Assembly (NCBI GenBank): GCA_036507075.1
Contig: DASXQR010000039.1
Span: forward strand, 1 to 27,561
Reading direction: 5' to 3'
Origin: Acidobacteriota bacterium
GTDB lineage: Bacteria; Acidobacteriota; UBA6911; JACQSX01
Length of the DNA: 27,561 nucleotides
Each line of letters opens with the position of its first letter. The stretch's first letter is position 1. Shown here one piece after another: positions 9,143-23,525 of the stretch. The position numbers and the translations under genes were made by a program. The notes under the pieces were generated by a model. That model saw nothing but the letters and a program-made list of their open reading frames with translations, was not told the DNA's origin and made no database searches.

Positions 9143-10132
9143 TCAGACTGCAGCCTCGGGAAGAGCGTCGTGGTTCGTTTCCCGCCGGCTGTTCAGCAGT
9201 CTTCCCACCAGGTAGACCGCCACTCCGGTGGCCAGAATGGGAACGACAGCGCGACGGATTCCGGTTTTGGACAGCAACAGATGAAGGACCGACTCGATCG
9301 CTGTTACGCCTCCCAGCGCTCCGGCGGCCGCAATAATCGTATCCTTCTCCCAGCCGTCGGCGTAGATGTGGCTTAGTTTCAGGAACAAAGAAGCCTTCAT
9401 CAGAAGCGACAGGGCCCGCGCATTCCGATCTTTCCCCTTGGAGCTGAGGATTGCAGAAGCAATGCTGTTTTCTTCCAGGATTTCCTCGGCCAGTGTATCG
9501 CGGTACTCGGGATATTCGCGCGCCAGTGAAAACAGCAATTGGGGCTGCAATGCCAGAATCTCGCGCAAAAGACGGCGGATTCCCACCGGGCTCTTCAGTG
9601 AAATTCCGATCACATCTCTCGCCAGCAGCTTCCTGCTGTCGGAAACAACGCCCCGCGGGTCGACCACCTGGTCCAGTTTGTTCAACACTACGAGCGTTGG
9701 AATCCCCAGCTCGTCGATGGAATCAACCAGAGAAATGGTGCTGCGTGTGGGCTGCAACCTGGCATCCAGCACCAGCACAATCAGATCAGCGTGGGCCGCT
9801 GCGCGCAATGATCCGGCATCGCGGCCATACCCCACATACTCGTCAATACCGGGGAGGTCAATCACCGAAAAGATCCTGCTCATTCTGTGATTTCCGCCAA
9901 ACAACTGCCGCATCAAAGTTCGCTTGCCGGAATCCGCCACACCGAGAAAGACAACTTTAACGGAGCCTTTTTTCCAGAGATTCATTTCCTTTTGCAGCCA
10001 TTGCCAGGTGACATCCCAGCCAACCTCATTGCCCAGTTCGGAGAGCACCCGAACCATACGGCTGTGCAATTCCGGAGGCAAAACGGGCGCCAGCGCTTGC
10101 GTTAAACTCTGGATCTCAGACGTTGAGCTCAA
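9143..10132 (-). CDS. Era/HSR1-like P-loop GTPase-domain protein with a hydrophobic C-terminus
   Basis: G1-like GVADSGKRT, G3 DLPG, DLIVLVLDA and G4 NKLD, followed by two hydrophobic C-terminal segments. TTG start with GAGGGA RBS. Confidence 0.7.
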   Translation of the reverse strand: MSSTSEIQSLTQALAPVLPPELHSRMVRVLSELGNEVGWDVTWQWLQKEMNLWKKGSVKVVFLGVADSGKRTLMRQLFGGNHRMSRIFSVIDLPGIDEYVGYGRDAGSLRAAAHADLIVLVLDARLQPTRSTISLVDSIDELGIPTLVVLNKLDQVVDPRGVVSDSRKLLARDVIGISLKSPVGIRRLLREILALQPQLLFSLAREYPEYRDTLAEEILEENSIASAILSSKGKDRNARALSLLMKASLFLKLSHIYADGWEKDTIIAAAGALGGVTAIESVLHLLLSKTGIRRAVVPILATGVAVYLVGRLLNSRRETNHDALPEAAV

Positions 10133-10262
10133 TTCTTCCCTCTATGGATTCAGCGCTCTCACTCCATTTTCCACATTGAGGCGCATTTTGCAAATCATGC
10201 TGAGCTTTCCGCAGATGTGTGTCAAACTTCGCCCCCAGGGCCGCGACCGGAAAGGATCGGGA

Positions 10263-10400
10263 TTGCCACGAAGACACGAAGACACGAAGGTCAATAAATC
10301 AGTCAGGAGTTCCACTTCTGCGATATCCCGGATTGGGTTGCCAGGAGTGCCACTTCACAGCAGAACAACCATCCTTCGTGGCTTCGCGGCTTCGTGGCAA
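10263..10400. repeat. MITE/REP-like family A, full-length copy (138 bp) in reverse orientation
   Basis: Aligns over its whole length with the reverse complement of 5771-5908. Confidence 0.88.
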
Positions 10401-10470
10401 ATTGAAGATCGAAAGTCGAAAATCCCCGAGATGTCAGAATTCAGTAGTGGGTCAGTTTGAATTCCGAAGT

Positions 10471-10562
10471 CTCGGCGAAACCTCAGCGTTCTTTGCGACC
10501 TTGCGGTGAATTCCGACGCCTTTCGCCGCAGAGTCGCAGAAAAATGCTGAGCTTGCGCTGAG
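10471..10562. repeat. Repeat family B, two arms in back-to-back arrangement
   Basis: ...GCGTTCTTTGCGACCTTGCGGTGAA (to 10510) and TTCGCCGCAGAGTCGCAG... (from 10522) match the arms of 26109-26199. Confidence 0.65.
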
Positions 10563-10712
10563 AAGCCTGCTAGTGCTTATGCGCCACTACGCTCGAATCT
10601 GCTGCTGAAGCAGCCGGTGATAAGCAAGCCAAAAAAAGGATGTTACAATCGGCGATGCGTATTGTTTGAAATGTTGCGTCGTTAAACCTGTCCCGTTTTG
10701 AGGGTTTTCAGC

Positions 10713-11543
10713 ATGCGTGTTTCCCGGATCATTTTCACTTTGGTAGATTTGACTTTGTGCGTCAGCACGGGCCCACTTTTTGGCGAGGTTCGTGCGGTTC
10801 CGGTTGTAAACCTGACGAATTCGGAAGATGCATCGGCCCCGTCCGCGCCCGCTGCAACCGCCGATCCGACACAACCGACACCGCCCGTGGGATCCGAGCG
10901 GTTCACTCTCTGGAGCGCTGTCCGAAATATACCGTCCGATCAGGCCGCGATGTGGACAAGCCCGTTTCGCACTGGGCGAAAAGACCTGGTGTGGCTGCTG
11001 CCGATTGCGGCGGGAACCGCGGTGTTTAGAAGCACCGATAAAAAGGCTGCCAGAAAGTTGGGGAACTCCGATAGGGTTCTGGGAATCAGCACAGATGTTT
11101 CGCGGCTGGGATCTGGATACGCTGACATGGGAGCTGCCGCCGTGTTTTACGCCGTTGGGAAACTCACCGGAAATGAGCGCGCACGCGAAATCGGATTGCT
11201 CGCCGGCGAATCGATTATCAACGCCGTGCTGATCGTTGACGCGCTCAAATTAATGACGAATCGTCAGAGGCCTGATCATCGGTTACACGAAGGTCGTTTC
11301 TGGGGACGAGGAGAGTCGTTTCCCTCGGGTCACGCAGGGATGAGCTGGGCGCTCGCCGCGGTGCTGGCTGAACAATACCCCAGTCCCTGGGTCAGGGTAG
11401 GCGTGTACGGCTGGGCCTCGGCTGTCGCCCTCTCACGGTTTACCGACCAGAAACACTACCCCTCGGATATTGTCGTGGGCAGCGCGATCGGATACCTGGT
11501 CGGTCACTACGTAGTAAAACACCATCGCCGCTCGCGGCCTTAA
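10713..11543 (+). CDS. PAP2 superfamily membrane phosphatase
   Basis: All three PAP2 motifs are present: KLMTNRQRP, SFPSGH and SRFTDQKHYPSD. Start is uncertain (ATG 10713 chosen). Confidence 0.88.
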   Translation: MRVSRIIFTLVDLTLCVSTGPLFGEVRAVPVVNLTNSEDASAPSAPAATADPTQPTPPVGSERFTLWSAVRNIPSDQAAMWTSPFRTGRKDLVWLLPIAAGTAVFRSTDKKAARKLGNSDRVLGISTDVSRLGSGYADMGAAAVFYAVGKLTGNERAREIGLLAGESIINAVLIVDALKLMTNRQRPDHRLHEGRFWGRGESFPSGHAGMSWALAAVLAEQYPSPWVRVGVYGWASAVALSRFTDQKHYPSDIVVGSAIGYLVGHYVVKHHRRSRP

Positions 11544-11561
11544 CAGAAGTCGACTGGGAAC

Positions 11562-11873
11562 TCACTTTATCACTGCAATCTTTGCGATCAATCGCCCGCC
11601 GAGAAACGCGCTTGCGGTGCGCCTGAGATGCGGATTTCTGATTCTTCTTACCTTCGGGTGCAACCATTCCTCAAGTACTCCCAACCCAAATCCGGCAGTG
11701 GGAGTGACCAGCAAGTCTACCGGCGAGGTGCGCATGTTGCCGAGGGCCGCTTCCCCAAACGGTCCCAGCTCGTGCTGAGTGGAATAAAGGACGCCCCACC
11801 AAAATGCCTGTTTGCGGGAAGCGCCGTTGCGGCGAGCGATCCGGTAGGGCGGGATCCCTGAACTATTGTTCAA
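11562..11873 (-). CDS. Small hypothetical membrane protein, possibly a C-terminal fragment of a larger protein
   Basis: Protein-like hydrophobic sequence (FWWGVLYSTQHELGPFGEAALGN...VDLLVTPTAGFGLGVLEE). TTG start overlaps the end of the RND fragment. Confidence 0.4.
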   Translation of the reverse strand: MNNSSGIPPYRIARRNGASRKQAFWWGVLYSTQHELGPFGEAALGNMRTSPVDLLVTPTAGFGLGVLEEWLHPKVRRIRNPHLRRTASAFLGGRLIAKIAVIK

Positions 11874-12468
11874 GCCCCGTCACTGATTTCGCCTCACCAA
11901 TCTTATTGCTCTTACTGCCAAACCGAGCGTACACAGCCGGTACGACGATCATGTTCAGCGCGGTCGAAGAAAACAGTCCAAAGAGAATCACGATGGCCAT
12001 CGGCGCCTGGATTTCGCTGCCGGGCTTGCCGATTCCCATCGCCACGGGAACCAGCGCCAGCCCAGCGGCCATCGCGGTCATAAGAATCGGCGCCAAACGC
12101 TCGGAAGCACCTCTCACGACGGCTTCGTAAAAATCTGACACGCCTTCCACTTCTATCAAGTGCTTGATATGCGATACGAGCATGATGCCATTACGGGTCG
12201 CGATACCAAACAACGTAATAAAACCGATCAGTGAAGCGACTGAAAGCACGCCTCCCGCGGCGAAAACTCCGGCCACACCACCGATGAGGGCCAGCGGAAG
12301 ATTGAGCATGATGATGAGAGCGTCGCGAATCGAGCGAAACGCCGTCATCAGGATGTCAAGAATGCCCGCGGTAACGGCCATCCCGAGCCATAACAACCGT
12401 CTGGACGCGCTCGCCTCGGTTTCGAACTGCCCGCCGTATTCGATCCGGTATCCGTGAGGTAACTGCAC
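11863..12468 (-). pseudogene. 3' fragment of a CusA/CzcA heavy-metal RND efflux permease
   Basis: Only the last ~200 aa of a family normally >1000 aa: LP.GY.IEYGGQFE, NLPLALIGG, SVASLIGFITLFGIATRNGI, ERLAPILMTA and EIQAPMA. No upstream continuation. Confidence 0.88.
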
Positions 12469-12519
12469 AGATGTATGTGGCTGCCCGATCGAATAAGCTC
12501 TTTAATGAGGGAAACGGCT

Positions 12520-12582
12520 GTGCGGATACTGGTTGTAGAAGACGAGAAAAAAGTCGCCCGGGCTCTCCAGGAGGATGAGTGA
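12520..12582 (+). pseudogene. 5' remnant of an OmpR-family (CusR/CzcR-like) response regulator
   Basis: GTG start after a GAGGGA RBS, translating VRILVVEDEKKVARALQEDE*. This is a typical receiver-domain N-terminus cut off after ~18 residues. Confidence 0.75.
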
Positions 12583-12655
12583 AAATGTGACGGTTTCGGG
12601 CGTGCTCGTCAGCAAAGGTGGAACGCGGATGATTTACGTTAAGTCCGTGAAATAG
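12575..12655 (+). pseudogene. Probable 3' remnant of a small beta-rich protein
   Basis: Translates as MSENVTVSGVLVSKGGTRMIYVKSVK*, an alternating beta-strand pattern ending shortly before the DUF1259 RBS. Confidence 0.4.
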
Positions 12656-12712
12656 CTCTCGCCGGCCGCGAAGCTCATTTTCAATCGCTGCCGATAAGTT
12701 CAAGAGGTTTAT

Positions 12713-13648
12713 ATGAAAAGTCGATACCAAAACTGGAGGGGTGTCCAGATCTCTTCGTTCATATTCTTGCTGTTGCTTTCGTTTCTCAGCGCCCAGGATG
12801 TCACTCCGGCAGAATACCAACAGGTCTTCGGAATTCTCGGTAAACAGGGTGATTTCAAATCCAATGTTCTGAAGATCAACATTCCCAGAAACGATTTGAA
12901 GGTAACCGTTGCCGGCGTGGAAACTCCGACGCCCTTTGGTTTCGGCGGCTGGCTCGCCATGACCAAGGGCGACGGAGGACACGAAGTGATGATGGGCGAT
13001 CTCGTTCTCCTCGAAGATGAAGTGAATCCCGTGATGTCGGCGCTGCTTGACAACGGACTGCAGGTCACGGCATTGCACAATCATTTCTTCTTTGAACAGC
13101 CCCGGATCTTTTACATGCACGTGATGGGACACGGCACGGCAGCGGATCTGGCCCGAATGGCCAAACCGGCGTTGGATCTGATCGGTCGTGCCCCGAACAG
13201 TGGCGGCGCTTCCACGCCGAAAATAACTCTCAAGCCGGGAAAACTGGACACGGCCCGCATCGCTCAAATCGTCGGCCGCCAGGGCGAGCAAAACGGCGCA
13301 GTGTACAAGATAACCGTCGGACGCGACGATTTGAAGATCAGGGAGATGGGCGCCGCCATCAATGCACGGATGGGATTGAACACGTGGGCCGCCTTTGTCG
13401 GCACCGACGATGATGCGGCAATCGCCGGTGACGTGGCGATGCTGGAGAAGGAAGTCACGCCCGTGCTGAAGACGCTTCGCAGCAGCGGCATTGATGTCGT
13501 GGCCATCCACCATCACATGATCGAGTCTCGTCCCGTCGTCATATTCCTGCATTATTGGGGGCGAGGGCCGGTGGAGACGCTGGCCACGGCGTTTCGATCG
13601 GCACTCGATCAGCTCGGGAAACAAGCGCCTAAAGAGACGCGACGTTGA
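12713..13648 (+). CDS. DUF1259 (LppY/LpqO-like) exported protein with two tandem domains
   Basis: Signal peptide. Repeated GD...LE.EV.PV...L...G..V.A.H.H motif (ALHNHFF and AIHHHMI), then FYMH and FLHYWGRG. AGAGG RBS. Confidence 0.88.
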   Translation: MKSRYQNWRGVQISSFIFLLLLSFLSAQDVTPAEYQQVFGILGKQGDFKSNVLKINIPRNDLKVTVAGVETPTPFGFGGWLAMTKGDGGHEVMMGDLVLLEDEVNPVMSALLDNGLQVTALHNHFFFEQPRIFYMHVMGHGTAADLARMAKPALDLIGRAPNSGGASTPKITLKPGKLDTARIAQIVGRQGEQNGAVYKITVGRDDLKIREMGAAINARMGLNTWAAFVGTDDDAAIAGDVAMLEKEVTPVLKTLRSSGIDVVAIHHHMIESRPVVIFLHYWGRGPVETLATAFRSALDQLGKQAPKETRR

Positions 13649-16068: not shown

Positions 16069-17127
16069 ATGACGGGAAGCGAATTGCGTGGATGGGAATC
16101 TAAATCAACCGACACGACGGAGAGGGACGCTCTCCGATGCCTTGAGTGCGTCGTATTTCTTTTTTGCCGCTGTTTGAAACCGGGGCAGCGCCGTTACGGA
16201 AACGCTATTAAGTTTGTCTTCCAAACTTCGGTTCTCCTATCTTTATCTTTACTAGCAGGCTCTCATGCAGCCGCCTCGGCTGTTCAAGCAGTTTCCCAGG
16301 CAAAAACGTCGGATTATAAGGAAACCTGGGAGAAATGCGCCCAATGTCATGATGACACGGTGAAGGATTTTTCGCGCGACGTTCACGGCAAGAGCGCCAG
16401 ATTTCTTTCCGGATCACGAGCAGCCAACTGCGAAACGTGTCACGGCGATCCAACCAAGCACGTGGAAACTACGGAAGCCAAAGATATCCTCAATCCCGCC
16501 AAGATGAAGCCTTACGTGGCAAACGAGACTTGCCTGAGTTGCCACGCAAGGGACCAGCGACGAATGTTCTGGCACAGCAGCCAACATGAAAACAACAAAA
16601 TGAGTTGTTTGAGTTGTCACAGGATGCACCATTCCCCGTCTGAGGAAAAAAAGCTGGCGAAGCGTACCGAAGAAGAATTATGTCTCTCCTGCCATACCGA
16701 CAAACGAAAAGCGTTCTACCAGCGCTCCACCCACTTGTTTCGCACTGAGCACTGGAATATGAAGGTTGGGTGTGCATCCTGCCACAACCCCCACGGGGGT
16801 GAGGCGGGAAGGATGCTTGTGTCGCGCTCGGTCAATGATCTTTGTTATACCTGCCATGCCGAAAAACGCGGCCCCTTTCTCTGGGAACATGCGCCGGTTC
16901 GCGAAAACTGTCTCAACTGTCACTCGCCCCATGGAACGAGCAATCCCAAGCTGCTCACAAACCGAGTTCACCTGATATGCCAGCAGTGCCATATTCATAT
17001 GTTGCCGCGCCATCAGACCGCCGCCGGAAAACCTCTGGACATATGGTCCATAAATCGCGGCTGTGCCAATTGCCACTCCCAGGTCCATGGCTCAAATCAT
17101 CCGTCGGGCAGAACTTTTACGCGCTAA
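16069..17127 (+). CDS. Periplasmic decaheme c-type cytochrome, DmsE/MtrA/MtoA/PioA family
   Basis: Ten CXXCH motifs (CAQCH, CETCH, CLSCH x3, CASCH, CYTCH, CLNCH, CQQCH, CANCH). Family-typical HAEKRGPFLWEHAPV and HSQVHGSNHPSG. Signal-like segment present; true start may be TTG 16174. Confidence 0.95.
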   Translation: MTGSELRGWESKSTDTTERDALRCLECVVFLFCRCLKPGQRRYGNAIKFVFQTSVLLSLSLLAGSHAAASAVQAVSQAKTSDYKETWEKCAQCHDDTVKDFSRDVHGKSARFLSGSRAANCETCHGDPTKHVETTEAKDILNPAKMKPYVANETCLSCHARDQRRMFWHSSQHENNKMSCLSCHRMHHSPSEEKKLAKRTEEELCLSCHTDKRKAFYQRSTHLFRTEHWNMKVGCASCHNPHGGEAGRMLVSRSVNDLCYTCHAEKRGPFLWEHAPVRENCLNCHSPHGTSNPKLLTNRVHLICQQCHIHMLPRHQTAAGKPLDIWSINRGCANCHSQVHGSNHPSGRTFTR

Positions 17128-17136
17128 GAGGACCAG

Positions 17137-19668
17137 ATGAGATCCGACCAGACAGACAGACCCACACCGATTCTTCGCGTCGATCTCGCTTTCTTGGCTT
17201 GCGTCGTCTCAGCGCTCATGTTTACTCACGTTTGGTGCCAGACGCAACAGAACGACACGACGCAAACACAGCAAAAGAACGCCGAGGCAAAAAAACCGCC
17301 CCTCCTGCTGCAGAGAATTCAGGCAAGCTTTGAAATCGGCGGCCAGACTCGTGATACCCAGGGAGGCCATCCCGCTAAGTTCCAGGAAGCGCGAGATGTT
17401 CCAAAAGGATTGTATGTCCAGAAATTGAGCCTGGACTTCCGCTCAGACGATTCTCCTTACTTTGTCTCATTGAGAGGATTTGAGATTCGCGAGCTTGACC
17501 AGCGTTTCAAGGTGGACGTAGGGAGGTTTGGAAAATATCGAACTCAATTTGTCTGGGACCAGGTCCCTCATTCCTTCGGCAGCGGAAGATACTTTTTTCA
17601 GAGGACGGCGCCGGGGATCTATCAAGTCAGCCCGACGCTGCGAGCGCGCCTGCAGGCCGCCACAACACCAGACACGGCGCCAATCGCTCCAAACGCCGAA
17701 TTGCCCACGATAGTTCGCCAGGAGCTGCAGACTGCAGCAATCACCGATGTGCGGCTCCGCCGGGATCAAGCCCTGTTAAAGCAGGACTACTGGGCCTCGG
17801 ATAATGTGGAATTACATTTTCAGTTGAGCCGGCTGCGCAATCGTGGATCGCGGCCCATCTCCGCGGGCACATTTGTCCGGCGACCCGGCCCTGCTCCCGC
17901 TCGGGACGGTTTGTGGGAGGGGCTGGGCCAGGAGCTGCCGGAGCCTATCGACCATCGGACGACGGATTTAAATTTGGGCACGCAGTTTTCGGGCAAACAA
18001 TGGAACGCCGGCGTGGATTACGACCTTTCTCTATTCCGCAACCATATCGGGACGCTGCTTTGGGAAAACCCGTTTCGGATCACCGACGAGCAAGGAATTG
18101 GAGCCACGAATAGATTCCGCATGGTTCGATGGCAGACCGATCTCGCTCCAAACAATAATTCTCACAGCGTCAGTTTTCGTGGAAATGTGGACCTGACGCG
18201 CCAAACGCAATTGCGCGGGCTGCTCTCGCTGGCGTACTGGACACAGAATGACGATTTCCTCCCTTGGACGCTAAACACAGCCATTGTGCCAAAAAGTTGG
18301 AATGCGGCTACTCCAATTGACAAGCCCACCGATGTAAACTCCCTTCCGGCGCGCAGTCTGAACGGGAAGATGCGAAACGTCAATCAGGACTATGCCCTCG
18401 TCAACCGCGCGAAGAACTTCCGCTTCCAACTCCAGTACCGTTCGCAGGACCTGAACAATCAAACACGCACCATTGAGTTTCCTGGATATGGCGCATTTGG
18501 CGATTCAACATGGCGCACGGCCGCCACCGATTTCTTCGGATTGCCGATAGAGAACCCCGATCAGTCCTTTACCCGGCAGAATACCACGGCGGGATTTCAG
18601 TGGGATATTCTGCCGCGGCTCACCTGGAAACTTGATTATGGGTGGGAGATTTGGAACCGTAATTTACGGGATGCGAACCGTACCAACGAACACAGCATCC
18701 GCGGCCGGTTGGATCTAACTCCCGGCGCAGGCATCCAGCTTAAAGCAGACTACCGTTACTCGGACCGACGCCCGCGATCCTACAACACCCAGCCATTGTC
18801 TTTTAATCCCGCTTTCGCCGGGTCCCCCGCGAATGGTCCCCAAGGGGCCTGGGAAGTAACTCCAAACACCCGTTTCGAGAGAGGCGTTCCAACTGAGTTC
18901 AACCTCCTTCGCCGGTTTGATGAGTCAGGTCGCATCCGAAACGATGGAAGCCTTTCGATCGATGTGGTGAAGGGCGACAAAACGAATTTCTCAGCTTCCT
19001 ATCGATATCTGCGGGATGACCATGACAAGAATTTTTACGGACGCCACTATACCGTCCTCTCTTTCATCGACGCCCAGTTCTCGTACGCATCCGAGGGTGG
19101 AAGTTTCTTTTATGCGAACTATTCACGGGAGATGAACCGCCTTGGGTATCGGGGGCTTGCGCACTTGCTGATAGCCGCCGCCGCCCCTCCAGGCGTTATC
19201 GTTCAAGGCACTACTGCTCAATTCCCCATCGCCAACACTTGGGATCGCAGCAGCCGAAGTAACCTGGACAGTTTTCAATTCGGCATTAATTCGGCGGCAC
19301 AGGAAGGAAAGCTACAAGTGGATCTTTCCTACGCGCTCTCGTTTGCTCGCGACCGAATCGATACCGTAAATCCGTTCCCCATTCGGGCAGATTCAGTCCT
19401 TAATGCACAGGCGTTTCCTTATCCGGACACTCTGGTGCGGCGCCAGGACGTGAATATCGTCATTACGCGTCAGCTACACGAAGGGCTTGAGGTGGGCGCG
19501 CGTTACTGGTATGAACCATACACGCAGGATGACTTCAGCTTCAACGTTCTCCAACCCTACGTGCACGGAAATATCACAAGCGATGCTCCGAAATATCTCT
19601 TCCTGGATTCGCGTTATGCCAGCTACCACGCCAACGTGGCGACGGTGTTTCTGCGATACTCCTTTTAA
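17137..19668 (+). CDS. MtrB/PioB-family outer-membrane beta-barrel porin
   Basis: 843 aa, 9 nt downstream of the decaheme gene. Signal peptide, EPID..T, S.F.N...L.WENPF, amphipathic strands and C-terminal YSF. Confidence 0.9.
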   Translation: MRSDQTDRPTPILRVDLAFLACVVSALMFTHVWCQTQQNDTTQTQQKNAEAKKPPLLLQRIQASFEIGGQTRDTQGGHPAKFQEARDVPKGLYVQKLSLDFRSDDSPYFVSLRGFEIRELDQRFKVDVGRFGKYRTQFVWDQVPHSFGSGRYFFQRTAPGIYQVSPTLRARLQAATTPDTAPIAPNAELPTIVRQELQTAAITDVRLRRDQALLKQDYWASDNVELHFQLSRLRNRGSRPISAGTFVRRPGPAPARDGLWEGLGQELPEPIDHRTTDLNLGTQFSGKQWNAGVDYDLSLFRNHIGTLLWENPFRITDEQGIGATNRFRMVRWQTDLAPNNNSHSVSFRGNVDLTRQTQLRGLLSLAYWTQNDDFLPWTLNTAIVPKSWNAATPIDKPTDVNSLPARSLNGKMRNVNQDYALVNRAKNFRFQLQYRSQDLNNQTRTIEFPGYGAFGDSTWRTAATDFFGLPIENPDQSFTRQNTTAGFQWDILPRLTWKLDYGWEIWNRNLRDANRTNEHSIRGRLDLTPGAGIQLKADYRYSDRRPRSYNTQPLSFNPAFAGSPANGPQGAWEVTPNTRFERGVPTEFNLLRRFDESGRIRNDGSLSIDVVKGDKTNFSASYRYLRDDHDKNFYGRHYTVLSFIDAQFSYASEGGSFFYANYSREMNRLGYRGLAHLLIAAAAPPGVIVQGTTAQFPIANTWDRSSRSNLDSFQFGINSAAQEGKLQVDLSYALSFARDRIDTVNPFPIRADSVLNAQAFPYPDTLVRRQDVNIVITRQLHEGLEVGARYWYEPYTQDDFSFNVLQPYVHGNITSDAPKYLFLDSRYASYHANVATVFLRYSF

Positions 19669-19705
19669 CCCGAATTCGGAAATTCGATAGCTTCTGGAAG
19701 AATTG

Positions 19706-19846
19706 GCCGCTGATCTGCACGGAAAACACGGATTAGTATCGGGGTCGAGGGATGGGCTCCATAACTGCAGGGTGTCAGCTTCGCCGGGCATCGACGCCCA
19801 TCCCTCGACCCCGATACCATCAGCGTTGTCCGCGTAAATCGGCGGC
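19706..19846. repeat. Nested inverted repeat (family C) between convergent genes; possible bidirectional terminator
   Basis: Perfect 22-bp inverted repeat 19736-19757/19796-19817, inside imperfect outer arms (GCCGCTGATCTGCACGGAAAACACGGAT/ATCAGCGTTGTCCGCGTAAATCGGCGGC). Confidence 0.8.
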
Positions 19847-19888
19847 TAGTTCCTGCAGTTTGTGAATAATCCGGACTAGGCCCGGCGC

Positions 19889-20245
19889 TTACTTCTTGAG
19901 CGTTCGCACGTAGCCGATGACATTGTCGACATCGGCTGCCGAAAGCTCCTTGATCGCTTTCATCTTGCCGACGCCGTCAACAATCGCCTTCTTCATATCA
20001 TCGTCTTTCTTATCCTGCACTTCCTTGGAACCGAGATGTTTGAATTCGGCCTTCATAACCTTTGCCATCTTTGGATTGCCTTCCCCGGCGGCGGCATGGC
20101 ATATTTTGCACTTCTTGTCGTAGACAACTTTGCCGGCCTGGGTGTCGGCGCCGGCCATGGCAGTAACCGGGATACGCAAAATGGTGATCAACAGCATGGC
20201 AACCACGAAAGTTGCGGCGAAAATTACGATGTTTTGACGGTACAT
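19889..20245 (-). CDS. Small periplasmic monoheme cytochrome c (class I)
   Basis: Signal peptide, G..VY...CKICH, candidate distal Met in GVGKM, and C-terminal LS..DV..V..YV..L. Lys-rich. GGGAG RBS. Confidence 0.92.
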   Translation of the reverse strand: MYRQNIVIFAATFVVAMLLITILRIPVTAMAGADTQAGKVVYDKKCKICHAAAGEGNPKMAKVMKAEFKHLGSKEVQDKKDDDMKKAIVDGVGKMKAIKELSAADVDNVIGYVRTLKK

Positions 20246-20399
20246 GGATACTCCCTTTCTAAGAACTCAATGCTATAGAGTTAAAACGCCGGCCATATGG
20301 CTAAAAAGCTGTAATGCGCTCGCTCCCCATAGACCGCTATCAGGAATCGCCGAGAAAAATGCCCGGGCAAGCGCGCGGGCTCTTCGGATCTAACCATAC

Positions 20400-20927
20400 T
20401 CACTTTGCCTTCTTCATCGCTCGCTGCCGGACGGTCTTAAGAATATCCTCCTGGGTAGCCGGCAGGACGCTTACGAGCGCCAGGAAGTTACGCTTTCCAA
20501 GGGCAGCAACTTCTGCCTCGGTCACGGCGCGAATCGTGGCATTTCGGGGCTCGTTAGTCAGCAATGCCGTCTCTCCGAAGTACTCCCCCTTGCCCAGTCG
20601 CGCCACCACTGCCTCATCGCTCTCTCCGTCGCGCTGGCGGACGACTTCAACTTCTCCGCTGCGGATGAAATAGGCGCAGTCGCCGAGGTCTCCCTGCCGG
20701 ACGATCACATCGCCAGGAGAATAACGTTCGTATTCGAAAAGCCGATGCTGCTGGCGAAATTCATGGAACAAAGCACCGGCGATAATAGCGATCGATAAGA
20801 TAACCAGCACCGGCGCGAATGTCGCGAAAACAAACAAGGTTCCACCGGTCGTGTTCAGCTCAAACTGAAGGCCCATGCCGAGCGCCAGCAGGGTCAAGAG
20901 TAAAGCCACTGTAAGCCATCGCTTCAT
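20400..20927 (-). CDS. Membrane-anchored cyclic-nucleotide-binding domain protein (2 TM + cNMP domain)
   Basis: Two hydrophobic helices, then GDVIVRQGD.GD..Y.I.SG.VEV and phosphate-binding cassette YFGETALL...PRNATIRA. No HTH or enzyme domain. Confidence 0.88.
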   Translation of the reverse strand: MKRWLTVALLLTLLALGMGLQFELNTTGGTLFVFATFAPVLVILSIAIIAGALFHEFRQQHRLFEYERYSPGDVIVRQGDLGDCAYFIRSGEVEVVRQRDGESDEAVVARLGKGEYFGETALLTNEPRNATIRAVTEAEVAALGKRNFLALVSVLPATQEDILKTVRQRAMKKAK

Positions 20928-20962
20928 GGACTACCTGCGGACTCGAACCTTCGAATAGGTGT

Positions 20963-21667
20963 TCATAGTTTTTGTTGAATCGGATGGGCCGGATTCGCGA
21001 TGCCATGGCAATCCTGGCAGCCCATGCGTCCCGAATAAATCTCCGCAAGAGCGTCCGTGTGTTCGCTCACCGATCGAAATTTTACCGATTGGGCGTGGCA
21101 TTTCAGGCAATCTCCGTTCTCGTAAGGATGGCGCATCTTGATCGGTAATTTGTAGGTGCGGGTATAGTATTTGTATACGTCGACCATCCCCGCAGTTTTT
21201 GCCTCAAAGGTGCCGAATAAGCCGTAAGAAGTATGGCACTCGTAGCACTGGTTGCTGTGAATGTATTGATTTCGATAATGCATGGCAGCGAGGCCTTCGC
21301 TCTTTGAGTTTTTCATATCCTCTACGTACGCCTTCATGGTCAGATGGCACGTTGCGCAAAACTCAACGCGCTCGGCGCGCGTAAAGACAAGAAGCATCCC
21401 GGTTGACACAGCCAACAACGGCACCATCACGACAGAAGTGATGACCAGGCTTTTAAAGAAAGGCCCAAAAAACCGCCCTCGGATGACCTGAAACAAAGAA
21501 AGAAGCACCAGACCCAGGCCGATCACCAGTACCCACACGAGAAACCGGGATGCGAGGTATTCGACAGGATCGTGCTGGAAAGATTCCTTCGGATCCTGGG
21601 CATATCCCGGAACTCCAGCAAGAATGGCGAACAGAGCTGCGCGCAGGGCGGACTTCAGCCCGGTCAT
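20963..21667 (-). CDS. NapC/NirT/CymA-like membrane tetraheme cytochrome c (putative quinol dehydrogenase)
   Basis: Four CXXCH (CATCH, CYECH, CLKCH, CQDCH). TM helix directly before EFCATCHLTM, as in NapC/NirT. ATG 21667 with GGGAGA RBS. Confidence 0.82.
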   Translation of the reverse strand: MTGLKSALRAALFAILAGVPGYAQDPKESFQHDPVEYLASRFLVWVLVIGLGLVLLSLFQVIRGRFFGPFFKSLVITSVVMVPLLAVSTGMLLVFTRAERVEFCATCHLTMKAYVEDMKNSKSEGLAAMHYRNQYIHSNQCYECHTSYGLFGTFEAKTAGMVDVYKYYTRTYKLPIKMRHPYENGDCLKCHAQSVKFRSVSEHTDALAEIYSGRMGCQDCHGIANPAHPIQQKL

Positions 21668-21875
21668 TGGTGTTCTCCCGTTAAGAATTGGGGCAATAAT
21701 CGTCTGTTTACGATTAAGAGTCAAGAGACGTTACGGGTACGCGATTTTGTATCGTAATTTTGCCTGGGCCGGTCATAAATGCCATTTGTTTTCATCTTGA
21801 GACGTGAGGCCGCGGAGGTTATTCTCATTAAACAGTCGTGTTCGAAGCGGACTTTGCTTAGCCTTCAGTTGAACG

Positions 21876-23525
21876 ATGCCGAAAAGACAAATAATCGTTA
21901 TCGGGGGCGGTTTTGCGGGAGTCTTCACCGCCATGGAGCTGGAGAAGCGCCTTGGGCCTGAGGAGGCAAACATTTGTCTTGTGAACCGGGAAAATTACTT
22001 CGTTTATCAACCCATGTTGCCCGAAATCATTTCAGGTTCCATCGGTTTGACCGACACCGTTGTGCCTATTCGCGCGCTTTGCCCGCGCACCAATCTGGTA
22101 ATGCGTGAGGTTGAAGAGATCGATCTAAAGGCAAGAACCGTCACCGTCAGCCCTGGATTCCATCCGAGAGCAATAGTCATTCACTACGATCACCTGATAA
22201 TTGCGATGGGCGCGGTTCCTGATTTCGGCGGCCTCCCGGGTTTTGTAGAGCATGTAATGCCGTTTCGCACGCTCACGGACGCGCTCAGGCTGAGAAATCG
22301 GGTTATCTCCGCTCTGGAAGAAGCGGACATTGAACGCGATCCTGATCTGCGCCGCAAATTGCTCACGTTTGTCGTTGCCGGGGCTGGCTTCTCGGGTGTC
22401 GAAGTTATCGCCGAGCTGAATGATTTTGTAACGGGTGTTACACGGCATTTTCGGAATATTATTCCCCACCAGGTCCATTGTGTACTGGTCCACTCAGGCA
22501 AGCGGATTTTGCCCGAGATGGTTGAAAGCCTTGGCGTCTTTGCTCAAGATCAGCTCATCCGTCGCGGCGTGGAGATTATCCTTAATGACCGCCTTATAGC
22601 TGTGACTTCGGAAAAGGCCATTCTGAAATCAGGGCTGGAGATTCCCGCAAAGACGATTGTCTCTACGGTGCCCTCCACGATTGATCCGGTGCTCAAAGAA
22701 CTTGACTGTCCCAAGGAAACGGGACGTTTGGCTGTGGACAAGTACCTGCAACTAAGAGGATATGAAGGAGAAGTTTGGGCATTGGGAGACTGTGCCTTGG
22801 TCCCAACTGCTTCGGGCGGCTCCGCACCTCCCACCGCGCAGCATGCGGTGCGGGAAGCGAGAACAGCCGCAGAAAACATCTGCGCGCACATCCGAGGCCG
22901 GCCTTCACAGCCATTTGATTTTGAGGAGCTGGGGCGGCTCGGCTCGCTTGGACACCACTCGGCAGTCGCGGAGGTAATGGGTGTCCGGATTTCCGGGCTT
23001 GTCGCGTGGCTGTTGTGGAGATTTGTTTACCTGGCTAAAATGCCCGGACTTAATAGAAAGGTCCGTGTAGCCGCCGATTGGCTGATAGGGTTGGTGTTCC
23101 CGCCGGACTTCGTTCAATTGAAGATTGGAAGACCTCCGGGCATTACCGAACAGCACGTCGAACCGGGAGAGATTGTTTTTTATCAGGGCGACGTTGGCGA
23201 CAGTGTCTATGTGATTCAACAAGGTCAATGCGAGGTCCTGCGCACCCGAAAAGGAGTCCAGCAAAGAGTCGCCGTTTTGGGAACGGGCGATTACTTTGGC
23301 GAGATGGCAGTGCTTCACGACGCTTCGCGAAACGCCACCATTCGCGCGCTCTCGCCGTTGGATCTTCTGGTAATCGCCAAGAGAGACTTTCAGAAGCTGA
23401 AATCAAATATTCCGGCTTTCGCGAAAATATTCGATGACGTCGCGACCAAGAGAGCCGTGGCGGACGAAGCCGAAAAAGCGATGGGTGCCGCCAGTCCGAA
23501 CTCACCAACCAGCTTGACACCATAG
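21876..23525 (+). CDS. Type II NADH:quinone oxidoreductase (NDH-2) fused to a C-terminal cNMP-binding domain
   Basis: IIVIGGGFAG, YQPMLPE, YDHLIIAMG, FVVAGAGFSGVE, WALGDCA, PPTAQHA and AWLLWRFVYL..MP. Then GEIVFYQGD.GD..YVI..G and YFGEMAVL...SRNATIRA. Confidence 0.92.
   Translation: MPKRQIIVIGGGFAGVFTAMELEKRLGPEEANICLVNRENYFVYQPMLPEIISGSIGLTDTVVPIRALCPRTNLVMREVEEIDLKARTVTVSPGFHPRAIVIHYDHLIIAMGAVPDFGGLPGFVEHVMPFRTLTDALRLRNRVISALEEADIERDPDLRRKLLTFVVAGAGFSGVEVIAELNDFVTGVTRHFRNIIPHQVHCVLVHSGKRILPEMVESLGVFAQDQLIRRGVEIILNDRLIAVTSEKAILKSGLEIPAKTIVSTVPSTIDPVLKELDCPKETGRLAVDKYLQLRGYEGEVWALGDCALVPTASGGSAPPTAQHAVREARTAAENICAHIRGRPSQPFDFEELGRLGSLGHHSAVAEVMGVRISGLVAWLLWRFVYLAKMPGLNRKVRVAADWLIGLVFPPDFVQLKIGRPPGITEQHVEPGEIVFYQGDVGDSVYVIQQGQCEVLRTRKGVQQRVAVLGTGDYFGEMAVLHDASRNATIRALSPLDLLVIAKRDFQKLKSNIPAFAKIFDDVATKRAVADEAEKAMGAASPNSPTSLTP

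Follow-up and report, generated by a model that had tools for sequence, protein, structure and literature searches.

A putative cyclic-nucleotide-linked inner-membrane electron-transfer module beside MtrAB-type genes in a soil Acidobacteriota genome

Acidobacteriota are among the most abundant bacteria of soil and peat, and recent work proposes that they carry out extracellular respiration via porin-cytochrome conduits. How electrons might pass between the inner membrane and such a conduit is the question raised by a locus on contig DASXQR010000039.1 of the Acidobacteriota assembly GCA_036507075.1, a 6.1-Mb soil metagenome bin of 233 contigs; the stretch analysed, 27,561 nucleotides in all, is called the window below. 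Six contiguous genes at 16069-23525 encode a decaheme cytochrome c, an outer-membrane porin, a monoheme cytochrome c, a small protein with two transmembrane (TM) segments and a domain of the cyclic nucleotide monophosphate (cNMP)-binding type (the 2TM-cNMP protein), a membrane tetraheme cytochrome, and a type II NADH:quinone oxidoreductase (NDH-2) with a cNMP domain of its own. An initial annotation, made from the DNA letters, had proposed these six identities and three transcription directions. All six open reading frames (ORFs) lie where it had placed them; domain models, heme counts and solved matches (6r2q_A, 9mqy and 4nwz) bear out the identities, and the ORFs read as it had described, with decaheme and porin on the forward strand, cytochrome c, 2TM-cNMP protein and tetraheme on the reverse strand, and the NDH-2-cNMP fusion again on the forward strand.

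We propose, with moderate confidence, that the locus holds a conserved inner-membrane electron-transfer module which stands beside an MtrAB conduit and works outward, with cyclic-nucleotide control of both membrane steps. The NDH-2 would oxidise NADH and reduce the membrane quinone; the tetraheme would oxidise the quinol at the periplasmic face and pass its electrons to the cytochrome c, which would deliver them to the porin-enclosed periplasmic decaheme and so to an acceptor outside the cell, for instance Fe(III) or humic matter. Both cNMP domains would bind a cyclic nucleotide from class III cyclases, and the steps that fill and empty the quinone pool would then be switched jointly at the protein level. 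Ligand binding, the contact of 2TM-cNMP protein and tetraheme, the sign of the regulation, the direction of electron flow and the acceptor are the parts of this scheme that we infer.

Conservation and genomic context of the module

A scan for tetraheme relatives, with each species represented by one genome, gave 162 loci; the best 80, with 10-kb flanks, were searched by tblastn with the window proteins, and all their ORFs were clustered. These loci come mostly from Acidobacteriota; 65 have full flanks and 67 have enough flank for NDH-2 to be counted. In 79 of the 80 loci the tetraheme gene is immediately followed by the 2TM-cNMP gene, the exception being a locus whose sequence ends 43 bp past the tetraheme gene. 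Of the other parts, a monoheme cytochrome c occurs in 63 loci and an NDH-2 in 35 (34 of the 67 with enough flank), and all 35 of these NDH-2 genes are cNMP-fused; they lie downstream and co-directional (24), upstream and divergent (10) or upstream and co-directional (1). MtrA and MtrB, by contrast, stand beside the module in a single locus (L024). What is conserved as a unit is thus the inner-membrane module and not the six-gene set. The initial annotation had expected the NDH-2-cNMP, TM-cNMP and NapC-like genes to co-occur next to dmsE/mtrB pairs, and this expectation is thus borne out for the inner-membrane genes, though not for the pair.

The single locus with MtrAB is the contig of G001, a comparison genome from the same family but a different genus. 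All six genes lie on this one contig, with 67-89% protein identity, in the order NDH-2-cNMP (divergent), then tetraheme, 2TM-cNMP, cytochrome c, decaheme and porin (co-directional), so that gene order differs from that of the window only by an inversion of the decaheme-porin pair, with linkage kept. The six-gene arrangement is far beyond chance, and the same genes are linked in other genomes. One could nevertheless suppose that the six genes became neighbours by chance or through mis-assembly of a metagenome-assembled genome and have no joint function. Such an origin would suit a contig from a metagenome bin of 233 contigs, a dispersed repeat at the porin/cytochrome c junction, and an mtrAB tract whose identity pattern is unlike that of its neighbours. 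It is hardly credible, however, when an independent contig from another genus carries these six genes in linkage, when the module recurs in all but one of the 80 loci, and when two soil sequencing runs from different studies, one of them possibly the source sample, hold 98% and 93% of the stretch's sampled words.

What takes the place of MtrAB elsewhere is a four-gene porin/multiheme set, which adjoins the module in 40 of the 65 full-flank loci, is complete in 39, and is found in Acidobacteriota among loci L025-L102 (for example L046:3817-9869; members in Table 1). Its member of ~546 amino acids (aa) was modelled as an all-beta protein of ~22 strands, with a predicted local distance difference test score (pLDDT) of 69 and a predicted TM-score (pTM) of 0.60; every one of its best structural matches is an outer-membrane barrel (MtrB ranks 36th), at low TM-scores of 0.3-0.44. 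Judged by this model, the four genes form a porin-cytochrome set. Homologs of it are absent from the window's genome. With the four-gene set in 40 loci and MtrAB here and in G001, one inner-membrane module pairs with two unrelated conduits, and in 41 of the 65 full-flank loci it adjoins one or the other, mostly co-directionally. The placing of the module beside an outer-membrane conduit by the initial annotation thus holds for the majority of loci, although the usual partner is this other set and not MtrAB. The swap of conduits supports a role of the module in trans-envelope electron transfer, and is the strongest evidence for it that we have. Around the module, families other than those of the conduits each occur in about five loci at most; three larger ORF clusters (7-11 loci) consist of opposite-strand ORFs that overlap the module genes.

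The module occurs across genomes of Terriglobia, Bryobacterales, Holophagae and Gemmatimonadota. In a tree of the tetraheme, window and G001 form a clade (Shimodaira-Hasegawa-like approximate likelihood ratio test, SH-aLRT, 99) whose sister is a group without conduits (96), with five or more changes of the conduit label over the whole tree; since this tree was made by a quick method only and is rooted on a very long paralog branch, we draw no order of events from it. In a further genome of the phylum, a full run of tetraheme, 2TM-cNMP, cytochrome c and NDH-2-cNMP genes (L105, G177:C1:45667-65666) has upstream of it, on the opposite strand, an ORF of 626 aa with 11 hemes together with large ORFs, which may be a third type of conduit.

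Table 1. Features of the locus in the window and of the four-gene set found beside the module in other genomes
Feature	Position in window	Strand	Description
MtrA/DmsE-family periplasmic decaheme cytochrome c	16069..17127	+	352 aa, 10 CXXCH, TIGR03508
High-identity tract relative to G001	~16880..19560		3' third of decaheme gene and whole porin gene
MtrB/PioB-type outer-membrane porin	17137..19668	+	843 aa, PF11854; 10 bp after decaheme gene
Hairpin-forming dispersed repeat	19720..19825		106 nt; in the convergent porin/cytochrome c gap, at one inversion junction
Periplasmic monoheme class I cytochrome c	19889..20245	-	118 aa, 1 CXXCH, PF00034/PF13442; N-terminal signal or anchor segment
2TM-cNMP protein	20400..20927	-	175 aa, two TM windows, PF00027; proposed regulatory partner of tetraheme
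Divergent NapC/NirT-like membrane tetraheme, putative quinol dehydrogenase	20963..21724	-	4 CXXCH, PF03264
Divergent tetraheme/NDH-2 intergenic region	21725..21875		presumed promoters; read directly
NDH-2 with C-terminal cNMP domain	21876..23525	+	549 aa; PF07992, PF22366, PF00027
Four-gene set, multiheme			~725 aa, five CXXCH, lipoprotein-like N-terminus
Four-gene set, tetratricopeptide repeat (TPR) protein			~274 aa
Four-gene set, predicted barrel			~546 aa, no Pfam match; aromatic C-terminal residue in 39/40
Four-gene set, cytochrome			~452 aa, 15 CXXCH

The genes that flank the six-gene locus are unrelated to it (DUF1259, DUF5916 and a GH15 glucoamylase), and Rfam has no match anywhere in the window. 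A scan for promoters and terminators gave counts not above those of shuffles. At 11863-12468 on the reverse strand, a 201-aa ORF matches only positions 840-1019 of the 1021 of an AcrB/AcrD/AcrF profile and, by that partial match, may be a truncated or broken efflux pump gene.

The membrane enzymes and their cNMP domains

The tetraheme is, by its sequence, only a distant relative of NapC/NirT. Its match to PF03264 (35.4 bits, cut-off 24.1) covers only positions 9-100 of the 174 in the profile, its score against the NrfH model TIGR03153 (35.3 bits) is below the cut-off of 134.2, TIGR02161 (napC_nirT) gives no match, and a profile of 32 homologs, aligned out of 474 found, retrieves no solved chain at E ≤ 0.01. 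The Cys and His of all four CXXCH motifs are invariant in these 32. NapC and CymA have a single N-terminal TM helix. This hallmark of NapC/NirT quinol dehydrogenases is missing from the tetraheme, in which a signal-like N-terminus is followed by two hydrophobic segments ahead of heme 1, an arrangement kept in the family consensus (the ATG at 21667, as in a 234-aa database copy, is an alternative start). The label "NapC/NirT-type" given by the initial annotation fits the four hemes but not the membrane part, with a domain match that is partial, and its "CymA-like" is not supported: by family-model scores and profile search the tetraheme is not a CymA or NrfH ortholog. Natural fusions of tetraheme and cNMP domain were absent from the 80 loci, and also from a search of longer proteins, which is itself weak evidence. 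Another NapC-like tetraheme, 39% identical and without a 2TM-cNMP partner, is encoded on contig C83 of G000 (L104: 15900-16586), about 9 kb from a second decaheme described below.

The 2TM-cNMP protein, which belongs to an Atlas cluster of 1150 unnamed members, scores 89 bits against PF00027 (cut-off 27.5). Positive residues follow its second TM segment and would thus place the cNMP domain in the cytoplasm. The periplasmic loop of its membrane hairpin, Thr-Thr-Gly-Gly-Thr-Leu-Phe (TTGGTLF), is nearly invariant in 40 sequences, and this is more in keeping with a specific contact than with simple anchoring; tetraheme and 2TM-cNMP protein would accordingly be expected to touch, in our reading of the gene pairing.

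The NDH-2 carries the dinucleotide-fold motifs GGGFAG and GAGFSG and scores 126.5 bits against PF07992, 39.5 bits against PF22366 (NDH2_C) and, in its cNMP domain (residues ~423-538), 80.4 bits against PF00027 (cut-off 27.5). Its solved relatives are NDH-2 enzymes, 9mqy (1.3e-42) and 4nwz (2.3e-42), and together with 5na1 and 4g6g the matches span E 1e-42 to 2e-30. An AlphaFold2 model (pLDDT 79.6) places the sensor after two C-terminal membrane helices, with a low-confidence linker at 416-421. Among the matches listed, all 120 NDH-2 homologs have the same cNMP fusion, and the named ones are called NADH dehydrogenase, NADH:(ubi)quinone reductase or FAD-dependent oxidoreductase. In a genome of the same class an NDH-2-cNMP protein 42% identical to this one (L022, G037:C1, ~276648-277910) has no tetraheme, decaheme or porin within 30 kb around it, so the fusion exists outside the module too.

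Sensor domains are thus found at both inner-membrane steps, as the initial annotation had it: fused to every NDH-2 at the loci, on the protein encoded directly after the tetraheme, and in both cases with the phosphate-binding cassette kept. Phe-Gly-Glu (FGE) is present in 80/80 2TM-cNMP proteins and 36/36 NDH-2 fusions, and the cassette Arg in 65/80 and 36/36; an unusual Arg-Asn-Ala-Thr (RNAT) is common to both families, and both window proteins read FGE...RNAT. The roles of the cassette Gly-Glu and Arg are here presumed to be those known from protein kinase A (PKA) and CRP. For both domains the best solved matches are true cGMP- or cAMP-binding domains, namely those of protein kinase G (PKG), PKA and the SthK channel, and within the genome the window's two domains are each other's best match (38% profile identity, E 6e-31). 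Two such closely related sensor domains on either side of the quinone pool suggest, from their sequences, a second-messenger control of electron flux at the protein level, and cyclic-nucleotide binding with allosteric gating is what we would predict for them. A structure search of the Atlas also paired the hairpin of the 2TM-cNMP protein with the NDH2_C helices (TM-score 0.71); the profile-profile alignment covers the cNMP domain only, and we keep homology of the two membrane parts as no more than a lead.

It is feasible that these domains bind some other ligand, or serve in structure or dimerisation, and gate nothing in response to a second messenger; for domains of the same cyclic-nucleotide-binding (CNB) fold in proteins of the CRP/FNR type, ligands other than cAMP or cGMP are known. 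Against nucleotide control also speaks the replacement of the cassette Arg by His or Gln in 15/79 2TM-cNMP proteins, and no cyclase gene lies in the window. Yet 14 of these 15 Arg-less proteins come from loci without a conduit, and all 15 lack a neighbouring NDH-2, which sets them in a separate context. The invariance of FGE and Arg in the fusions and the nature of the solved matches likewise speak for true sensors. Class III nucleotide cyclase genes occur in only 9 of the 80 loci; in eight, however, they directly flank the module, and cyclases of four architectures (FHA-GAF-cyclase, FHA-cyclase, cyclase-FHA and HAMP-cyclase) have been recruited beside it. Three cyclases are encoded elsewhere in the window's genome, on contigs other than this one. 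Taken together, we consider a non-sensory role of the domains unlikely.

The MtrAB block and the direction of electron flow

The decaheme scores 239.2 bits against TIGR03508 (DmsE family), above the curated cut-off of 192.2; its residues 87-350 match MtrA as solved in the Mtr complex of Shewanella (6r2q_A, E 3e-57), and it is 71% identical to its G001 ortholog. The start of its ORF is uncertain, with the alignment to the ortholog opening at residue 31 and a signal-like segment near residues 47-70. The porin matches PF11854 (MtrB_PioB) over profile positions 7-635 of 635 (268.3 bits, gathering score 23, E 2e-79). Its score against TIGR03509 (199.3 bits) is below the curated cut-off of 240.05, and we therefore regard it as a divergent member of the MtrB/PioB family; its match to MtrB itself (6r2q_B) is weak (E 0.003), and it is 89% identical to the G001 protein. 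On contig C83 of G000, L104: 3980-7033 holds a second decaheme (342 aa, 10 CXXCH, 31% identical to that of the window) followed by a 671-aa protein without Pfam match that is possibly another porin.

When window and G001 are compared in windows of 150 columns, nucleotide identity is 86-97% inside the tract given in Table 1, except for one window at 75% (17177-17311), and falls to 65-80% in the 5' part of the decaheme gene; upstream windows, at 31-43%, are essentially unalignable. The tract is ~92% identical to G001, compared with ~68% for neighbouring sequence. Its counterpart in G001 lies at L024 ~10080-12860, where the neighbouring genes are 67-72% identical as proteins. The repeat at the inversion junction folds into a hairpin with a 22-bp stem (minimum free energy -71.8 kcal/mol, z -6.4) and has 18 other copies of at least 98 nt, at 91-96% identity, on other contigs of the genome; by these features it looks like an element of the miniature inverted-repeat transposable element (MITE) or repetitive extragenic palindromic (REP) type. 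Tract identity, inversion and junction repeat together point to a recent exchange or conversion of the mtrAB conduit, and the identity profile suggests that recombination or transfer was confined to the conduit genes.

NDH-2 is non-electrogenic and not coupled to the proton gradient. It can thus pass electrons from NADH into the quinone pool, yet is unable to run uphill, and outward flow is favoured. The evidence from the periplasmic carrier leans the other way. Met95 of the monoheme cytochrome c is invariant in 64/64 aligned homologs, and the protein is probably His/Met-ligated, to judge from this alignment. Carriers of the His/Met type usually have a high potential; they are poor donors to low-potential decahemes and better suited to uptake or to the feeding of an oxidase. 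The invariant Met thus agrees with a high-potential carrier and makes a simple outward chain less likely. The seven solved relatives of the monoheme at E ≤ 0.01 are all CcoP, cytochrome cy, c6 or c552. None of them is named MtoD, of which a solved structure exists, and, going by these nearest relatives, the monoheme is by sequence not an MtoD ortholog.

These observations bear on a reverse flow, in which extracellular Fe(II) or reduced humics would feed electrons through MtrAB and a high-potential cytochrome c to a terminal oxidase, in the manner of Mto or Pio, while the tetraheme would form a branch into the quinone pool and the NDH-2-cNMP protein would be a co-regulated redox balancer and not an electron source. 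In support of uptake, the gene content mirrors the mtoA-mtoB-mtoD-cymA/imoA cluster of Sideroxydans, as far as the published accounts describe it (PMC4412085, PMC9600427, PMC6295460). The porin is long (843 aa), like PioB and MtoB; the Met ligand is invariant; no MtrC-type outer cytochrome appears among the window genes, either in the ORF list or in the domain search; and the window's genome encodes two heme-copper oxidases. On the other hand, NDH-2 cannot drive the reduction of NAD+ and is yet the commonest extra partner of the module (35/80 loci), the usual partner conduit has 15-heme and 5-heme cytochromes, and no sequence relation ties the monoheme to MtoD. Moreover, a recent preprint (10.64898/2026.05.27.727921) reads porin-multiheme clusters of anoxic-peat Acidobacteriota, possibly the same as those described here, as respiratory outlets. 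We consider uptake rather doubtful as the function of the locus.

A third possibility is that the module is a bc1-independent quinol:cytochrome c branch of aerobic or microaerobic respiration, from NADH through NDH-2, quinone, tetraheme and cytochrome c to an oxidase, to which the adjacency of conduits is secondary. The resemblance of the cytochrome c to the oxidase-associated carriers CcoP, cytochrome cy and c6 would be expected on this account, as would the two oxidases in the genome and the 24 of 65 full-flank loci that have no conduit within 10 kb. Among the conduit-less loci is a Gemmatimonadota/Holophagae group from which the cytochrome c, too, is missing. None of the 80 loci, however, holds a gene for a heme-copper oxidase (COX1 homolog), which in addition argues for outward flow; conduit genes are the only ones to recur beside the module beyond a handful of loci, and most full-flank loci adjoin a conduit. 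A dedicated oxidase branch therefore appears decidedly unlikely to us.

The outward scheme itself, with NDH-2 as source and conduit as outlet, has to contend with several points beyond the ligand and the relatives of the monoheme and the loci without conduit. The lack of an MtrC-type outer cytochrome counts against a simple outward chain. Adjacency of MtrAB and module is limited to the window's genome and G001, the decaheme-porin block is inverted between the two, and its recent exchange, which fits modular swapping of conduits, also means that the adjacency of MtrAB here may be young. NDH-2 is missing nearby in 33 of the 67 loci with enough flank, and the module was found in only 5 of 401 sampled genomes of the phylum (E ≤ 1e-40, seven candidates scored per genome). 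Finally, footprinting of the presumed promoter region against that of G001 gave no conserved block.

Relation to described systems and significance

The closest match in gene content is the Mto cluster of Sideroxydans lithotrophicus ES-1 already mentioned, which likewise brings together a decaheme, an MtrB/PioB-type porin, a periplasmic monoheme and a NapC/NirT-family tetraheme. The locus described here differs from it in its monoheme, unrelated to MtoD by sequence and with an invariant Met, in its tetraheme, of a divergent subfamily with extra TM segments, and in its host, an Acidobacteriota bacterium as against a member of the Betaproteobacteria; the accounts cited above mention neither a cNMP-domain protein nor an NDH-2. 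In the CymA-MtrCAB system of Shewanella, too, electrons that a tetraheme takes from quinol go to a periplasmic pool and an MtrA/MtrB conduit, but the window has no MtrC and its tetraheme is no CymA ortholog. Anaerobic respiration in Shewanella depends on cAMP, with transcriptional control via cAMP-CRP. The sensor domains of the window are thus on or beside the enzymes, whereas that of Shewanella is on a transcription factor.

The nearest published parallel is the marine ptdABCDEFG cluster (bioRxiv 10.1101/2023.11.21.568154), which, as described, comprises a porin, multihemes, an FAD/NAD(P) oxidoreductase and a cNMP-domain iron-sulfur protein of unknown joint function. Its cNMP protein is described as having two 4Fe-4S clusters and as paired with a ferric-reductase-like membrane protein, not with a NapC-like tetraheme or an NDH-2. 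A literature search for an NDH-2 (type II NADH dehydrogenase) or a NapC with a cyclic-nucleotide-binding domain returned only this preprint. The locus for flavin-based extracellular electron transfer (EET) in Listeria and Lactiplantibacillus resembles the module in having its own Ndh2 to feed the quinone pool. It is a Gram-positive system with the flavoproteins EetA, EetB and PplA and without porin, multiheme cytochromes or cNMP domain. We thus regard the locus as a regulatory variation on known porin-cytochrome EET pathways, and the module itself is undescribed in the literature searched, in keeping with the initial annotation, which had not recognised the arrangement as a known system.

For Acidobacteriota, porin-multiheme conduits have been reported in Terriglobia and Bryobacterales as MtrCAB "Group 5" and as the EET1 and EET2 of peat (PMC8805035; bioRxiv 10.64898/2026.05.27.727921). 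The 2026 preprint describes conserved porin-multiheme clusters of peat Acidobacteriota that are transcribed in anoxic deep peat, and the four-gene set may be its "porin-scaffold-cytochrome" EET1. The main text of the preprint makes no mention of cyclic nucleotide, cNMP, NapC, NDH-2 or NADH dehydrogenase. Table 1 of a 2018 survey (PMC6295460) gives no CymA homologs in Acidobacteria, and the account of Baker et al. 2022 (PMC8805035) reports no inner-membrane quinol oxidoreductase near the Group 5 acidobacterial MtrCAB clusters. With such an enzyme absent from these surveys, the module becomes a concrete candidate for the missing step. In its fullest form, which we put forward tentatively, the proposal would be that the divergent NapC/NirT subfamily, its obligatory 2TM-cNMP subunit and the cNMP-fused NDH-2 constitute the missing inner-membrane entry to EET in Acidobacteriota, with interchangeable conduits and with a nucleotide that switches the filling and draining of the quinone pool at the enzymes themselves.

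Should the scheme prove true, it would be the first instance in which a second messenger allosterically controls an electron-transfer chain of respiration. It would also provide a switchable part for engineered electroactive strains, and would bear on how the turnover of soil carbon responds to redox shifts.

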